Of a stretch of 63,288 bases of DNA, positions 1 to 59,660 are shown piece after piece (the stretch's first letter is position 1; the number at the start of each line of letters is the position of its first letter). The notes under the pieces were generated by a model, which was not told the origin of the DNA, searched no databases, and worked only from the letters and a program-made list of their open reading frames with translations. Source of the DNA: Patescibacteria group bacterium (GTDB lineage Bacteria; Patescibacteriota; Patescibacteriia; 2-02-FULL-49-11); contig JBFLWV010000058.1 in NCBI GenBank assembly GCA_040757655.1, forward strand, positions 1 through 63,288, read 5' to 3'. The position numbers and the translations under genes were made by a program.

Positions 1-150
1 ATCCCTCTTGAGGACTTTTTCAACTGACATCATACGATTTTGTGTTGATTTTAATAATTGCTTTGTATTTTCAAGACCTTGCTATCCTTAATTTTATCAA
101 AATAACCTAATTCGCAACAGGTCTATTAATATCTTAATGGAAGGGAGGAA

Positions 151-192
151 GGGACATTATTTTCTCGGTCGAGAAAATAATTGTCCTTTTTA
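151..192 (+). terminator. 17-bp-stem hairpin followed by a T-run
   Basis: GGGACATTATTTTCTCG-gtc-GAGAAAATAATTGTCC TTTTTA. No obvious upstream plus-strand gene in the window. Confidence 0.5.
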
Positions 193-237
193 TTGTATGC
201 CATATCTTACCTTTTATTTCTTTAAATCTTATTATAC

Positions 238-551
238 TTGCCAAATCTCTCTCTCTGCTAAAGTGGGATAGTAAAAAGATGTTTGTCAAAAAAGTTCATG
301 AAAGGAGGTGATGAAAGATGGGATTCTGGTCTTGGATTTTAGGACAGGATAAGGAGGTAGAGCTTTTCTACCTCTTCAAAAGCAATCCGACTGTAAGTGG
401 GCCAGACCGGACACCTCACCAGCGCGAGCGGCCCGAGAATCTACCCAATGGTTATGTCATTGGGTCTAGGATGGTGTCGCCAAGAAAGGCGGAAAAGCTC
501 GTGGGAAGGTGACGGTGAAGGCGAGGGCTATCAACCCCCGCCTGATTTTTT
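238..551 (+). other. orphan plus-strand unit A: promoter-like region, extended SD, 64-codon ORF (318..512), intrinsic terminator
   Basis: AAAGGAGGTGAT (301-312) lies 9 nt before ATG 318. There are several 8-bp hairpins. Terminator AGGCGAGGG-n7-CCCCCGCCT plus a T6 run at 519-551. Coding versus ncRNA is unresolved. Confidence 0.35.
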
Positions 552-607
552 AAAGAAAACCAAAGAAGCACCAAAATTTGATGCTCCTTATGCTATCAGT
601 GTTTGAT

Positions 608-726
608 CTGCGACGCTACAACCGATTAACATTCTATAGCGTGGCAGCTGGTCTGCCACCACGGTGTCGGAGACGAGCCCCCGTAGGAGAGCAAAGCACC
701 CTACGGGGCAAGTCCGACGCTACAGG
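608..726. repeat. REP/BIME-like mosaic hairpin element, copy A
   Basis: CTGCGACGCTACA ... TGGCAG-ctggt-CTGCCA ... GTCGGA[CCCCGTAGG...CCTACGGGG]TCCGACGCTACAGG. Confidence 0.8.
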
Positions 727-741
727 CGGTTGGAGTATTTG

Positions 742-13535: not shown

Positions 13536-13685
13536 AGAAAAAATTTTCAATGCCTAAAGTCCAAAAATTTTCAATGCTCAATTTTCAATTTCCAAAGAAT
13601 GTCACAATGACTCAATTTTCAAAAGTTTGGTAATTGATTCATTGGGAATTGATTGAAAATTGGTATTTGAAAATTGAAAATTCGT
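13536..13685. repeat. low-complexity inverted repeat between gatC and gatA
   Basis: TTTTCAATG/TTTCAATTTCC words on the left are mirrored by CATTGGGAATTGATTGAAAATTGG...GAAAATTGAAAA on the right. Confidence 0.7.
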
Positions 13686-14350: not shown

Positions 14351-14521
14351 TGTAGCGTCGGAGTTAATCTCCGACCAATCGAGTGGCAGATAAACTGCCA
14401 CGCTACAATTGTTCAATCACCTGTAGCGTCATAGCTGGTCTATGACTCAACCGATCGGGTGGCAGACCCCGATAGTAGAAGCTACGCTTCACTACGGGGC
14501 ACGCAAGCTGCCACGCTACAG
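14351..14521. repeat. REP/BIME-like mosaic hairpin element, copy B (two units)
   Basis: TGTAGCG-TCGGAG-ttaat-CTCCGA...GTGGCAG-ataaa-CTGCCAC-GCTACA; then CTGTAGCG-TCATAG-ctggt-CTATGA...GTGGCAG[...CCCCG..CGGGG...]CTGCCAC-GCTACAG. Confidence 0.8.
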
Positions 14522-14523
14522 AT

Positions 14524-16677
<2,154 letters not shown>

Positions 16678-23669: not shown

Positions 23670-24478
23670 TATCCTGCAAGGATAGTGTGGAGATACCATT
23701 CAAGAATTTGGTCACCCCAGAAGAGCGTAACGATTCCTGCCAAGGAAAGGAACGTGCCAAATGCGATGCGTGATTGCCATGTTTTTGATTTTAGAAAGAG
23801 CAGCGGTATGGATATGGCCGCTCCACTAAGATATGCGCCAGCAAGCGCGAGAAGGATCAGGGGGTATGAGACCGCAACACCGATAAATCCACCTACGAAG
23901 AGGTCTCCCACCCCAATCCACCGTCCCCTCGATATCACATATTGGAATCCAAAGAATCCTACCCCTATTATACCAGCTAGAAGCAGGGGTAACAACGGTT
24001 CCCCTAATATGAGATTTAGAGGGAGCGTGATAAGCCCTGCAGTGATCATGACGACATCGAAGATGAGCTGGAAACGGAGGTCAGTGACAAAGGTGATGAC
24101 CAGTGCGCTGATAATGACCCAGTCGCGGAAGAGGCTCAACGCGAGTAAAGGAGTGTAACCACCTTCCTGCAGGCGAAGGGAGAAACTAAGCGCGAAGAGA
24201 CCGCCAGTTGCCAATTCCACCGCAGGATATTGCCAGGAAATTGGAGTGTAACAGCTACGGCATTTTCCTTTAAGGAGGACAAAGGAAATCAGTGGGATGA
24301 GATCATGCCACGCGATTGCTCTATGGCAGTGTGGGCAATGCGACCGACCGTTTAATCGTTCTCCCCGCGGGAGGCGGTGGATGACCACGTTTAAGAAACT
24401 GCCGATTATCGCGCCAAAGATAAAAGTGGGGAGTATAATCATAACATAGTGTAAGAGTAGTTCTGAGGATGGTATCAT
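23669..24478 (-). CDS. pilD: prepilin peptidase (A24 family)
   Basis: GSFLNVVIHRLP, CPHCHRAIAWHDLIPLISF...GKCRSC zinc motif, polytopic membrane protein. Confidence 0.85.
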   Translation of the reverse strand: MIPSSELLLHYVMIILPTFIFGAIIGSFLNVVIHRLPRGERLNGRSHCPHCHRAIAWHDLIPLISFVLLKGKCRSCYTPISWQYPAVELATGGLFALSFSLRLQEGGYTPLLALSLFRDWVIISALVITFVTDLRFQLIFDVVMITAGLITLPLNLILGEPLLPLLLAGIIGVGFFGFQYVISRGRWIGVGDLFVGGFIGVAVSYPLILLALAGAYLSGAAISIPLLFLKSKTWQSRIAFGTFLSLAGIVTLFWGDQILEWYLHTILAG

Positions 24479-24483
24479 GAGCT

Positions 24484-24590
24484 AAATCCCAATGACCAAT
24501 CAGTGATTTAATGCCCAAATGACCAATTTTGGAATTTGGGATTTTATTGGGTCTTAGACATTGGGGTTTGGGGTTTTTTTAATTCGAGCC
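24484..24590. repeat. CCAATG/TGACCAA-word simple repeat flanking pilD (upstream side), running into the 3' end of the DUF2723 gene
   Basis: AAATCCCAATGACCAATCAGTGATTTAATGCCCAAATGACCAATTTTGGAATTTGGGATTTTATTGGGTCTTAGACATTGGGGTTTGGGG. Confidence 0.7.
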
Positions 24591-37633: not shown

Positions 37634-37730
37634 TGTAGCGTGGTAGTGTATCTACCACATCGGGTCGCAGACGAGCCCTGTAGAGCTCCCCCCGGTGGGT
37701 GATTCTACGGGGCGAACTGCGACGCTACAG
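37634..37730. repeat. REP/BIME-like mosaic hairpin element, copy C
   Basis: TGTAGCG-TGGTAG-tgtat-CTACCA...GTCGCAG[GCCCTGTAGA...TCTACGGGGC]CTGCGAC-GCTACAG. Lies in the divergent promoter region between the methyltransferase gene and ileS. Confidence 0.8.
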
Positions 37731-41730: not shown

Positions 41731-41860
41731 TGTAGCGTCGGAGTTCATCTCCGACATCACGTCTGTAGCGTCGCAGCTTGCCCTATAAATCACCCACAGG
41801 GGAGCTCTATGGGGCTTGTCTATGACTCAATCGATCGGGTGGCAGACAGGCTGCCACGCA
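41731..41860. repeat. REP/BIME-like mosaic hairpin element, copy D
   Basis: TGTAGCG-TCGGAG-ttcat-CTCCGA...CTGTAGCG-TCGCAG[inner loop is the reverse complement of copy C]...GTGGCAG-acagg-CTGCCAC. Confidence 0.8.
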
Positions 41861-42054
41861 ACCATTTGATAGTACCCAAGGGATTTAATTCATCGTATCG
41901 GAATTTCAATGTTTGAAATTCCGACAGCACTAAAGCCTGCGGGCTTAGTGCTGGACTGCGTTAGGCAGCCAGCCAGATACGACCCAGCCTCTTTCGCAGA
42001 AAGGGGCTGCCCCGCAGGGGAGTTAGTGCCCGAAGGGCCTAACTGGCGCTATTA

Positions 42055-42076
42055 TGGCTCTTTTAAGCCATTTTTT
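42055..42076 (+). terminator. terminator-like hairpin plus T6, copy 1 of a duplicated ~26-nt sequence
   Basis: TGGCTCTTTTAAGCCATTTTTTGTT. Confidence 0.5.
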
Positions 42077-42091
42077 GTTTGGCTACCCAAA

Positions 42092-42119
42092 TTGACAAAG
42101 TATGCAAAGTATATATACT
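42092..42119 (+). promoter_or_regulatory. sigma70-like promoter of the antitoxin/PIN operon
   Basis: TTGACA-N16-TATACT. The ATG at 42128 is only 8 nt downstream of the -10 and has no SD. Confidence 0.6.
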
Positions 42120-49904: not shown

Positions 49905-51359
49905 ATGATAGTTAAATGGAATAGTATGCGCATCACATTTTACGGCGGCGCGGGCGGGGTGACGGGATCAAAGCATTTGGTTGAAATCGGCGGCGCGCGC
50001 ATCCTGTTTGATTGCGGATTTTTTCAAGGGCACCGCGTAGAGGCGCGGGAGCAGAATGCACGTCTGCCGTTTGATCCTACCACGATTGACGCGGTGGTCT
50101 TGTCGCACGCGCATCTTGACCACTGCGGCATGTTGCCGCTTTTGGTGAAAGGAAGATTCAAGGGTAACATTTATGCGACTGCGGCTACGCGGGATGTGGC
50201 GGAATGGATAATGAAAGACGCGGTACACGTGCAGATGCAGGATATGGTGCATTTACAGCGGCAGCAGTCTCAAGGAACTTCCCTTGCCGAGCCGTTCTAT
50301 ACGTTTGATGATATTGAACAAACGCTTGCACGGTTTGTGGATGTGCCGTATGTGAGAAATACTGGAGAGTGGTTTAATATGCGTGTAGGGGCGAACGGCC
50401 GTTCGCCCGTACAAATGAAATTGTATGACGCCGGGCATATTCTCGGTTCTGCAGTTATAGTGCTCGAGGCTCGGGGTGAGAGCGGCAGGATAGAGCGCGT
50501 GGTGTTTACCGGCGATCTTGGGCGCTGCGGCGCACCGCTCATTCCTGATCCGGAATTTGTGCATGAATCGTCAGAGGTGCTTCTTTTAGAGAGCACCTAT
50601 GGCAATCGCGTGCATGCGGATTTTGCGCAGGCAAAGGAGCGATTAAAGGCAATTATCCACGCGACGTTGGAGAGGCGCGGAAAGCTTGTGGTGCCCGCAT
50701 TCGCGCTCGGCCGCACGCAGGAGCTGCTCTACCTCCTGCACCGATTGACCGATGATAAAGAAATTCCCCGTATTCTCATTTTTGTCGACAGCCCGCTTGC
50801 CGACCGCGTGACAGAAGTGTATAAAAATCATATTGACGATTTTGACATCGAGACCTGGAAAGAATTCGGGAGACGTGGCGATGAGCCACTCGTATTCCGC
50901 AATCTTACCCTGATTCAATCCGTAGAAGAGTCAAAGCGACTGAATATGATGGAGGGGCCATTTATCGTAATTGCCGGATCTGGCATGTGCGAGCATGGGA
51001 GGATCCAGCACCACCTTGCCCGCGCCATCAACGATCCGCGCAACACCATACTCATTACCGGCTTCCAGGCAATAGACACGCTGGGAAGGAGGCTGGTGGA
51101 GGGCGAGAAGAGGGTTAGAATTTATGATGAATTTTTTGAGGTGCGCGCGCGGGTTGAGAAGCTGAATGAATTGTCAGCACATGCCGACCGCAATGAGCTG
51201 CTCGAGTATGCGGAACACGTGAATGGCGTGAAGAATATTTTTTTGGTTCATGGTGAGAAACCTCAAGTGATTGGTCTGCAAACCTTATTTCATGAACATC
51301 ATCCTGACTGGCGGGTGGATATTCCGGAGAGAGGGCAATTGTTTAACGTTGAGAAATAA
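49905..51359 (+). CDS. MBL-fold beta-CASP RNA-metabolising hydrolase (CPSF/RNase J-like)
   Basis: HAHLDHCG, LYDAGHILGSA, LLESTYGNR, GRTQELL, SAHADRNELL. An alternative ATG lies at 49926. Confidence 0.8.
   Translation: MIVKWNSMRITFYGGAGGVTGSKHLVEIGGARILFDCGFFQGHRVEAREQNARLPFDPTTIDAVVLSHAHLDHCGMLPLLVKGRFKGNIYATAATRDVAEWIMKDAVHVQMQDMVHLQRQQSQGTSLAEPFYTFDDIEQTLARFVDVPYVRNTGEWFNMRVGANGRSPVQMKLYDAGHILGSAVIVLEARGESGRIERVVFTGDLGRCGAPLIPDPEFVHESSEVLLLESTYGNRVHADFAQAKERLKAIIHATLERRGKLVVPAFALGRTQELLYLLHRLTDDKEIPRILIFVDSPLADRVTEVYKNHIDDFDIETWKEFGRRGDEPLVFRNLTLIQSVEESKRLNMMEGPFIVIAGSGMCEHGRIQHHLARAINDPRNTILITGFQAIDTLGRRLVEGEKRVRIYDEFFEVRARVEKLNELSAHADRNELLEYAEHVNGVKNIFLVHGEKPQVIGLQTLFHEHHPDWRVDIPERGQLFNVEK
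50385..50412. repeat. perfect 20-bp palindrome GGGCGAACGGCCGTTCGCCC (GTA-flanked) inside the beta-CASP hydrolase CDS
   Basis: GTAGGGGCGAACGGCCGTTCGCCCGTAC, palindrome core 50389-50408. Translated VGANGRSPV. Confidence 0.95.
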
Positions 51360-56441: not shown

Positions 56442-57883
56442 GCAAGTTCTACATCACCACCACGCTTCCCTATGTGAATGCTGATCCGCATATCGGGTTT
56501 GCGCTGGAAATCGTGCAGGCCGACGTGATTGCGCGGTGGCACCGAAGGGTGGGGGATGAGGTTTTTTTCAATACCGGCACTGACGAGCATGGCTTGAAGA
56601 TTTACCGCGGCGCGCAAGGAGAGGGAATGGATCCGAAAGCATACGCGGATCTCCATGCAGCGAAGTTTGAGGCACTGAAAACCGCACTCAACCTAAGCTA
56701 TAATAATTTCATACGGACCACTGATCCGCATCATGTGGCGGCTGCGCAGGAATTTTGGCGGCGCTGTGCGGAGAAGGGCGACATTTACAAGAAAAATTAC
56801 CGCATTAAATACTGCGTCGGCTGCGAGCTCGAGAAGACGGAATCGGAGCTTGAGGATGGCCGCTGCCCCCTCCATCCCCATCTTGCGCTGGAACAGGTGG
56901 ATGAGGAGAATTATTTTTTCAGGTATTCGCGTTACCAAGATGCTCTATTGGAATTATATAAGAATAATCCGCAGTTTGTCGTGCCGAAGAACAGAATGCT
57001 CGAGATCGTCAAATTTACCGAGCGGGGGCTGCAGGATTTCAGCATATCGCGGCTTAAATCAAAAATGCCATGGGGCGTGCCTGTGCCGGGCGATGATGCG
57101 CAGGTGATGTATGTGTGGTTTGACGCGCTGGTCAATTATATTTCAGCCCTCGGCTGGCCGGACGACCTCCAGAAGTTCAATGCATTCTGGCCGGGCGTGC
57201 AGGTGGCGGGCAAGGACAACCTGCGCCAGCAGTCGTCCATGTGGCAGGCGATGCTCCTCTCTGCCGGGCTCCCGCCATCCACCCAGATATTGATACACGG
57301 GTTTATCACTTCACGAGGACAAAAAATGTCGAAATCGCTCGGCAATGTGGTGAGCCCGTTTGAGTATGTGGAAAAGTTTGGCGCGGACGCGCTTCGGTAT
57401 TACCTTCTTCGGGAAATTCCCACGCTCGATGACGGCGATTTTACGCATGAGCAGTTCCTCGCGCGCTATAATGCAGACCTTGCCAATGGCCTCGGGAATC
57501 TTGTCCAGCGCGTGAGTACTATGATCGCGAAATATTCAATCAATGTAGGGGCGAACGGCCGTTCGCCCGTACAGAGTGTGTTGAGAAAAGAGATTGATAA
57601 TTGTATTCAGCGATATCAGCTCGATCAAGCATTGGCGGTGATTTGGGAAAAAATCGCTGCCTGCGACAAACGTATTGATAACGAAAAACCGTGGGCATTA
57701 GCAAAGGACACTTCCCAGCATGAAAAGTTAGAAGCTTTGTTGTCTAGCTTGGTTGCCGACCTTCGGGAAATAGGCGTTGCGCTTTTGCCCTTCCTTCCCT
57801 GCACTGCGGAGAGTATACTGAAGGTGGTGGGTGCGGAAAAGATTGTGCCACCCGCAAAGCCGCTGTTTCCGAGAGAAACATAA
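56438..57883 (+). CDS. metG: methionyl-tRNA synthetase (short form)
   Basis: YITTTLPYVNADPHIGF (HIGH-type), zinc knuckle CVGCE...CPLH, KMSKSLGN. Confidence 0.9.
   Translation: MSKFYITTTLPYVNADPHIGFALEIVQADVIARWHRRVGDEVFFNTGTDEHGLKIYRGAQGEGMDPKAYADLHAAKFEALKTALNLSYNNFIRTTDPHHVAAAQEFWRRCAEKGDIYKKNYRIKYCVGCELEKTESELEDGRCPLHPHLALEQVDEENYFFRYSRYQDALLELYKNNPQFVVPKNRMLEIVKFTERGLQDFSISRLKSKMPWGVPVPGDDAQVMYVWFDALVNYISALGWPDDLQKFNAFWPGVQVAGKDNLRQQSSMWQAMLLSAGLPPSTQILIHGFITSRGQKMSKSLGNVVSPFEYVEKFGADALRYYLLREIPTLDDGDFTHEQFLARYNADLANGLGNLVQRVSTMIAKYSINVGANGRSPVQSVLRKEIDNCIQRYQLDQALAVIWEKIAACDKRIDNEKPWALAKDTSQHEKLEALLSSLVADLREIGVALLPFLPCTAESILKVVGAEKIVPPAKPLFPRET
57545..57572. repeat. same 20-bp palindrome inside metG CDS
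   Basis: GTAGGGGCGAACGGCCGTTCGCCCGTAC, core 57549-57568. Translated VGANGRSPV. Confidence 0.95.
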
Positions 57884-59565: not shown

Positions 59566-59660
59566 GTAGCGTGGCAGCTTGTCTGCCACCGATCGCTCGA
59601 GTCATAGGCAAGCTATGACGCTACAGGTAATTATGTCGGAGATGAACTCCGACGCTACAC
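59566..59660. repeat. REP/BIME-like mosaic hairpin element, copy E
   Basis: GTAGCG-TGGCAG-cttgt-CTGCCA...TCATAG-gcaag-CTATGA-CGCTACAGG...GTCGGAG-atgaa-CTCCGAC-GCTACAC. Lies between convergent tatD and the antiporter gene. Confidence 0.8.

Follow-up and report, generated by a model that had tools for sequence, protein, structure and literature searches.

The five hairpin loci in a 63,288-nt stretch of Patescibacteria DNA (hereafter the window) are very probably GTAG-tagged REPs, mostly head-to-head heterodimers of REPIN/BIME-like form, and serve as non-autonomous partners of a RAYT—i.e., TnpA_REP, an HUH Y1 enzyme. The window is contig C58 of a 1.19-Mb, 70-contig assembly (48.6% G+C, estimated 98.9% complete) from an Uhrbacteria-type genus (CPR/Patescibacteria). 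We refer to this genome as G000 and to two further species of the genus as G012 (Candidatus Uhrbacteria RIFCSPLOWO2_02_FULL_49_11) and G013. Regular-expression scans covered G000, 60 relatives, and a species-wide collection, and the whole G012 assembly was used for flank comparison with G000. A first-pass annotation of the window had read the loci as REP/BIME-like. Their anatomy agrees with that reading, with a GTAG tag at the hairpin foot and the hairpins arranged in head-to-head inverted pairs and small mosaics.

All five loci share one hairpin grammar, as had been proposed, and they hold the only copies within the window. The unit reads GTAGCG, T-NNN-AG, 5 nt, CT-NNN-A, and C, so that a GTAG tag is followed by one base, a 7-bp stem, and a 5-nt loop. 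At locus A, a 12-nt remnant, CTGCGAC-GCTAC (608-619), represents the 3' arm and tag of a TCGCAG-type REP. It is followed by a plus-strand TGGCAG-type half at 636-659, which folds as a hairpin and carries the mutated tag ATAGCG, and by an inverted, minus-strand TCGGAG-type half at 666-723, the loop of which holds a nested CCCCCGTAG...CTACGGGG module (678-708). Locus B comprises two doublets. B1 (14352-14406) is a canonical 55-nt head-to-head doublet of a TCGGAG half (14352-14375) and a TGGCAG half (14383-14406), with a predicted Y-shaped DNA fold of -18.8 kcal/mol (z -7.2). B2 (14423-14519) joins a TCATAG half (14423-14446) to a TGGCAG half (14459-14519) that contains a nested CCCCGATAG...CTACGGGG module at 14467-14499, and it stops 4 nt short of the stop codon of a minus-strand gene (14524-16599). 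Locus C (37635-37728) pairs a TGGTAG half (37635-37658) with a TCGCAG half (37664-37728), the latter again with a nested module (37676-37712). Locus D consists of a single plus-strand TCGGAG-type half (41732-41755) and a doublet (41765-41862) with a mismatched left half, whose chimeric hairpin has the arms TCGCAG and CTATGA around a nested module at 41781-41814, and a right TGGCAG half (41839-41862) with the degenerate tag CGCAAC. Locus E is a doublet (59566-59624) of a TGGCAG half (59566-59589) and a TCATAG half (59601-59624), accompanied by an additional single TCGGAG-type half on the minus strand (59635-59658).

Loci A and B lie right after stop codons, C in the divergent region upstream of ileS, D between tandem genes, and E between convergent genes. 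Locus A sits inside a segment of about 540 nt (window 203-741) that is missing from both sister species. A separate hairpin, GGGACATTATTTTCTCGGTCGAGAAAATAATTGTCC (window 150-200), is found directly 3' of an orthologous gene in G012 and G013; in G000, the lineage-specific segment of about 540 nt that includes locus A separates this hairpin from that gene. Because the flanking sequences differ between loci, the copies are independent of one another and are not fragments of one duplicated region. Two details of the initial description needed adjustment. The GTAGCG/CGCTAC bounds are present, but the outer stem that they form consists of nothing more than the invariant tags at either end of an inverted pair, and the CGATCG motif assigned to the linker occurs in some linkers but not in all, the linkers varying from 5 to 14 nt.

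The stem variants had been described as compensated, with both arms changing together, and this was confirmed across the genome. At 57 G000 sites chosen on the tag and left arm only, the right arm was the exact complement in 54, while permutation gave a mean of 16 perfect stems and none of 10000 permutations reached 54. Each of the three imperfect stems carried one single transition that leaves a G-T wobble. When sites were taken after a bare GTAGCG anchor, stem pairing was bimodal, with 54 sites at 7/7 pairs and a background mode of 1-2. Perfect hairpins numbered 65 genome-wide in G000 versus 4 in shuffled sequence, and a census with long loops allowed returned 61 units with perfect arms in G000, in about 33 clusters, and 71 in G012. 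The genome-wide scan that the first-pass annotation had called for was positive in G000 and also in its relatives within the genus. Among 39 distinct 24-mers from the three genomes, GTAG was invariant (39/39), and three of the 7 stem pairs changed on both sides. The covariation test, likewise called for, gave a score of 0.405 versus 0.107, with 0/500 shuffles as high and 99.6% of cells paired; slid registers gave no such changes on both sides. The covariation had been taken as an argument for a folded structure. Compensation is indeed clear, but since compensated stem subfamilies are ordinary in GTAG REPs (PMC3733652), covariation alone makes no case for a new structured RNA.

The roughly 33 clusters of G000 comprise head-to-head doublets, singletons, tail-to-tail pairs, and trimers. 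All 18 head-to-head doublets pair a TGG-type stem (TGGCAG or TGGTAG) with a TC-type stem (TCGGAG, TCGCAG, TCGTAG, TCATAG, or TTGGAG), and there are zero homodimers. Because the two halves of a doublet differ at two stem positions, the predicted single-strand fold is a three-way Y junction, in which two hairpins are closed by the paired tags; it is predicted for both strands (z about -7). By crude ORF calls, 25 of the 33 clusters are intergenic, and most of the "inside ORF" calls are artefacts of choosing the longest ORF. Across the genome, tandem genes flank 15 clusters, divergent genes 5, and convergent genes 2, and 11 of 17 copies are no more than 32 nt away from an upstream stop codon. Doublet orientation showed no bias relative to transcription (10 versus 6). 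An intrinsic-terminator scan at loci B, C, and E was negative, with no T-tract after them. Rfam gave no match at the gathering score in the whole window and nothing relevant at E ≤ 1 around locus D, where one chance-level match was returned (E = 0.086). The doublet ends showed no target-site duplications and no terminal inverted repeats beyond the tags. Outside the window, the coding sequence of a class-V aminotransferase contains one complete doublet in frame (G000 C60, 860-914), whose orthologous site is at 24383-24520 of G012 contig 67. Compared with PDB 2DR1, this protein has a 15-residue insertion that falls within the 19 residues encoded by the element and its edges.

Several REP loops are themselves occupied by smaller modules. 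A 29-37-nt module of the form CCCCGTAG-N13-21-CTACGGGG occurs in about 16 copies in G000, and those inside REP loops are flanked by YTYG...YTYG. The inner-hairpin loop had been reported as flipped in copies C and D. This part of the description did not hold: the two copies look opposite because whole REP halves are inverted, and the four copies with a AATCACCC...GGGGAGCT core all have one fixed orientation relative to the host GTAG tag (4/4). The G012 orthologue of locus C has a plain ACGAG loop and is therefore an unfilled site. In G012, an 18-nt perfect palindrome, CCTGCCTGCGCAGGCAGG, is present in 43 copies. About 24 of these are in REP loops, always between the 5' arm and a CTTGT loop, and the remaining ones form the apex of unrelated hairpin repeats. 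The same palindrome is found in G000 (C52 4400 and C63 6282) and in G013 (L164 about 2285-2310 and 2545-2575), where it also occurs within a coding gene, reading PAQAGQ. A 16-nt CCCGTCGAATGACGGG module and a CCCCGTAGTGAAGCG... module are both shared by G000 and G012. The modules may arise by strand- and position-specific insertion into single-stranded loops. It is tentatively conceivable that the REP hairpin apex acts as a landing site for smaller palindromes in a nested system, combined with a RAYT-independent upkeep of the stems by selection or conversion; if true, this would amount to hierarchical, hairpin-targeted mobile palindromes and to an upkeep process with no need of a resident RAYT. 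The small dispersed repeats of Nostoc described by Elhai et al. in 2008 are likewise said to be nested in other repeat copies and to sit at hairpin tips. An RNA intermediate was reportedly proposed for them, with no known link to a RAYT, and they differ from the present modules in sequence and host.

Other repeats were met in passing. An abundant repeat starting with TCGTATCGGAATTTCAA-NNNN-TTGAAATTCCGACAGACACTTTACCCTTCAGGTAAGTGCGGGACTGCGTTAGGC lies at about 41885-42110 of the window, with about 33 further copies across G000. The copy in the window has a terminator-like hairpin at its end. The repeat matches nothing in Rfam and looks like a multi-copy structured RNA or leader. The first 20 nt of this repeat adjoin a REP doublet in five cases. 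At 13564-13682 of the window, there is a repeat of AAAATTTTCAAT-like units, with dozens of matches on both strands in G012 and G013.

We then turned to the distribution of the family and its enzyme. The pattern GTAGCGTSRBAG-N5-CTVYSAC is restricted to the genus, whose three genomes have 54, 47, and 62 matches; scans of 58 other genomes of the class gave none, nor did a control with the reversed pattern. A search for a RAYT had been suggested at the outset, and it found one flanked by matching doublets in the sister species G012 and none in G000. G012 has a single such gene, encoding MTFHKALRMKDFDYRGSYLYFVTICTDNR...HIHMIV...GYWEHVIRNE, which scores 80.9 bits on NCBIfam NF047646, "REP-associated tyrosine transposase" (cut-off, 80 bits), and 35.8 bits on the IS200 model. 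On its 5' side are a complete TGGCAG+TCGGAG doublet and a second, short one, so that four REP halves lie within 135 nt of the start codon, compared with a genome-wide REP density of about 1 unit per 14 kb. At least one further REP unit lies directly downstream of the gene, beyond a scaffold gap. REP/RAYT systems are defined by just this arrangement, in which REPs of the same genome lie on both sides of the RAYT (PMC3333891, PMC3116915, PMC3733652).

In G000, the Pfam Y1_Tnp HMM gave four matches, all of them broken tnpA fragments of IS200/IS605 type (C23 19680-20119, C17 1352-1609, C2 2030-2233, and C4 1380-1577). The C23 copy is frameshifted, and the others are one N-terminal and two C-terminal pieces, those on C2 and C4 having near-identical C-terminal ends. 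The best NF047646 score in G000 was no higher than 24 bits, and tblastn of G000 with the G012 RAYT gave no match. Synteny places the site of the G012 RAYT at the end of G000 contig C2, where no RAYT was present in the 240 nt past the conserved gene, a stretch with at most one decayed REP arm. The cognate RAYT is also missing from G013. That genome has a divergent RAYT (L164, 1459-1956; 99.6 bits on NF047646), which is flanked by untagged hairpins, GGTTCAATCT-N3-AGATTGAACC, that occur zero times in G000 and once in G012. Seven G000 contigs end in a repeat of about 130 nt, CTTTTTTAGGCATAGGATGGATC...CGGTACGCTACC (C3, C23, C30, C48, and C54 at the 5' end; C29 and C69 at the 3' end), which is probably an unassembled multi-copy mobile element. 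Its interior was not found in the bin, in G012, or in the metagenome contigs, so a hidden gene in G000 stays conceivable. Since no RAYT was found in G000, its roughly 60 copies are most likely an orphaned population that is structurally intact and no longer moved by a cognate enzyme.

RAYT-like genes are more widespread, with matches in 23 of 61 genomes of the class. In one Ignavibacteria genome, one Bipolaricaulota genome, and one further MAG, RAYT paralogues are each flanked by their own GTAG-stem-loop-stem repeats, mostly with a CTTGT loop, and one of these repeats, GTAG-CGTCCGAG-CTTGT-CTCGGACG, is the present unit with a compensated swap. The half-unit GTAGCGTCGGAG-N5-CTCCGAC occurs in more than 107 stretches of other phyla, chiefly Bipolaricaulota/Acetothermia. 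In the genomes that bear the half-unit, no gene is closely homologous to the G012 RAYT; the best is 34% identical, in an Ignavibacteria genome. We treat the half-unit elsewhere as the same REP design and as evidence of neither a shared family nor transfer. A conserved intergenic repeat of about 110 nt in Bipolaricaulota MAGs combines a half-unit, GTAGCGTCGGAGCTTGTCTCCGAC, with a following GTTGAGAGGTTTGTTCCTGACAGAGTTCATGTAGCTCGTACAAACAAC on many contigs and in many genomes (loci L099 about 255-380, L079, L057, L070, and others).

To follow the units over time, we compared orthologous sites between G000 and G012, where the mean flank identity is 74%. Of the testable G000 sites, 6/14 were occupied and 8/14 empty in G012; conversely, 6/19 testable G012 sites were occupied and 13/19 empty in G000, counts that cannot separate gain from loss. 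Five of the six shared G000 sites were identified by script and one, C18, by inspection, its G012 copies carrying nested inserts; the common sites include locus C, the in-frame aminotransferase copy, C26, C33, and C43. Exact insertion boundaries between occupied and empty sites were unreadable by pairwise alignment, the intergenic DNA being too diverged, and identical-protein look-ups for two flanking genes, made in search of strain variants, found none. Orthologous copies with different, compensated stems are seen at locus C, C43, and locus E. At locus C, TGGTAG + TCGCAG in G000 corresponds to TGGCAG + TCGGAG with no insert in G012, and the site orthologous to locus E in G013 holds a tandem array of TGGCAG+TCGGAG doublets. 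The shared C33 copy appears halfway, with a single-arm transition. In the in-frame aminotransferase copy, 2 of 55 positions differ, while about 13-27% differ in its flanks (counted by eye). Since shared sites keep their tags and pairing at about 74% flank identity, the units have been kept paired over long times. Selection, copy-to-copy conversion, or replacement by a recently present RAYT could each be the source of this pairing.

The biochemistry of the RAYT family suggests how such units would move (PMC3333891, PMC3479197, PMC8266576). In single-stranded DNA, each unit would fold into its 7-bp hairpin; the RAYT would bind both this fold and the GTAG guide at the base of the hairpin; and it would cut and rejoin the strand, by which units could spread or reshuffle. 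A REP origin is also compatible with host-maintained structural elements that are now under host selection, for instance because they stabilise mRNA 3' ends, bind proteins, or act as DNA-structure elements, so this possibility competes only over present-day maintenance. We regard it as possible but rather unlikely. Host selection would explain perfect pairing without a RAYT, including the orthologous copies that retain tags and perfect, sometimes different but compensated, stems at 74% flank identity. It would also fit the 2/55 differences in the in-frame aminotransferase copy against roughly 13-27% in its flanks, the finding that all three imperfect stems are single transitions leaving a G-T wobble, and the 11/17 copies within 32 nt of an upstream stop codon. 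However, the copies show no orientation bias relative to transcription; they lack T-tracts and hence are not intrinsic terminators; they also occur in divergent promoter regions and inside a gene; and about two thirds of the sites are not common to both species. Moreover, copy-to-copy conversion or a recently lost RAYT could equally keep the stems perfect.

Two further explanations were weighed. In the first, the repeats would be no RAYT partners. Miniature IS derivatives, either MITEs of a DDE transposon or palindrome-associated elements of IS200/IS605, would be in keeping with the four IS200/IS605 tnpA fragments of G000, one of which (C17 1352-1609) has a REP-like hairpin, GTCAGAG-ATAAA-CTCTGA-TACTAC, about 60 nt away, and the ends of IS200/IS605 likewise consist of a subterminal hairpin and a guide tetranucleotide (PMC6006769). 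Yet no GTAGCG tag lies within 500 nt on either side of the frameshifted C23 IS200 copy, no IS in G000 carries these ends as a MITE would demand, and the doublet ends have neither target-site duplications nor terminal inverted repeats beyond the tags. The one gene that doublets enclose is a RAYT (81 bits on the RAYT model versus 36 on the IS200 model), and we consider an IS origin very improbable. Selection on an RNA fold, as in a family of structured non-coding RNAs of cis-regulatory or small-RNA type, would account for the covariation in three stem pairs, the strong predicted folds, and the G-T intermediates, which are G-U pairs in RNA. Against this, the fold is as good on one strand as on the other, copies lie in all orientations to the neighbouring genes and have no promoter or terminator partner, Rfam gives no match, and one copy is translated in frame within the aminotransferase. 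No RNA need be invoked for the pattern, which the invariant GTAG tag and the link to a RAYT already explain. The chance that these are non-coding RNAs is thus extremely small. A cyanobacterial HIP1/SDR reading was tried as well and rejected, GCGATCGC not being over-represented (43 versus 36 expected).

To our knowledge, nearly all work on REP/RAYT systems has dealt with large Proteobacterial genomes, and no paper linking REP/RAYT to CPR/Patescibacteria was found in the literature searched. Here, a streamlined genome of roughly 1 Mb carries about 60 REP hairpins, a modest copy number unlike that of classical REP hosts. With GTAG-tagged REPs as the preferred reading, the genus offers a natural comparison of one species with a cognate RAYT versus two without, and hence a tractable case for asking whether REPs decay after RAYT loss, why the heterodimers are strict, and where the loop modules originate. 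For annotation, these loci should be labeled as REP repeats and not as candidate new RNAs.

Among known systems, the REPIN-RAYT system (Bertels and Rainey 2011, PMC3116915) shares with the present family an inverted REP pair as the repeated unit, vertical inheritance, lineage restriction, and a single-copy RAYT flanked by its REPs. Unlike a REPIN, the doublet has differing halves and folds into a Y junction and not one long hairpin, so that it falls outside the REPIN definition; spacers are 5-14 nt here, and two of the three species lack a cognate RAYT. The BIMEs and REPtron of E. coli (PMC3333891, PMC3479197) resemble it in that two REP types alternate in orientation and are joined by linkers that are short and variable, and the E. 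coli enzyme TnpA_REP/YafM (PDB 4ER8) is a Y1 HUH enzyme that recognises a folded hairpin and GTAG (PMC3333891, PMC3479197). In contrast to E. coli REPs, the stems here are perfect, with no bulge, and L/S linker motifs are lacking. The G012 RAYT has weak similarity to 4ER8 (23.5 bits). The sequences are unrelated to E. coli BIMEs and the linkers short and variable, and BIME-like describes only the working of the elements.

Quentin et al. (2018, PMC6006769) describe short REPs for TnpA_Y1 subclass 2.5; in these, 1-2 nt separate the tetranucleotide from a short stem, and foot and stem together measure 10-13 nt, compared with 4+1+7 = 12 here. No CPR genomes are among those listed in that study (PMC6006769). 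G000 also holds 28-nt GTAG...GTAC double-foot palindromes that resemble the double-foot REPs of subclass 2.4 (PMC6006769). These palindromes, GTAGGGGC...GCCCGTAC, form a second GTAG family at 50385-50412 and 57545-57572 of the window and at C24 5194 and C50 2228 of G000; the G012 version, GTAGGGGCAGAAGATTTTCTGCCCGTAC, occurs in three copies on one contig.

The units are closely akin to the GTAG REP superfamily, surveyed in 8 phyla with no CPR/Patescibacteria among them (Di Nocera, De Gregorio, Rocco 2013, PMC3733652). Its members have a terminal GTAG, stems of 6-13 bp (7 bp here), alternative complementary stem residues, and G-T pairs; they form head-to-head, tail-to-tail, and head-to-tail dimers, trimers, and complex loops; and they show an intergenic bias with some intragenic copies, as well as RAYT genes flanked by repeats (PMC3733652). 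The present units differ in their 5-nt loops (YTYRY), compared with loops commonly of 2-3 nt, and in a tag placed one base from the stem. Heterodimers are preferential in the superfamily, where no explanation was offered (PMC3733652), whereas here the dimers are strictly heterodimeric (18/18). The family is therefore a known element type in a little-studied host, namely GTAG REPs with strictly heterodimeric doublets in an Uhrbacteria-type genus, and what is unusual here is that modules are nested in the loops and that orthologous copies are long-lived and compensated.
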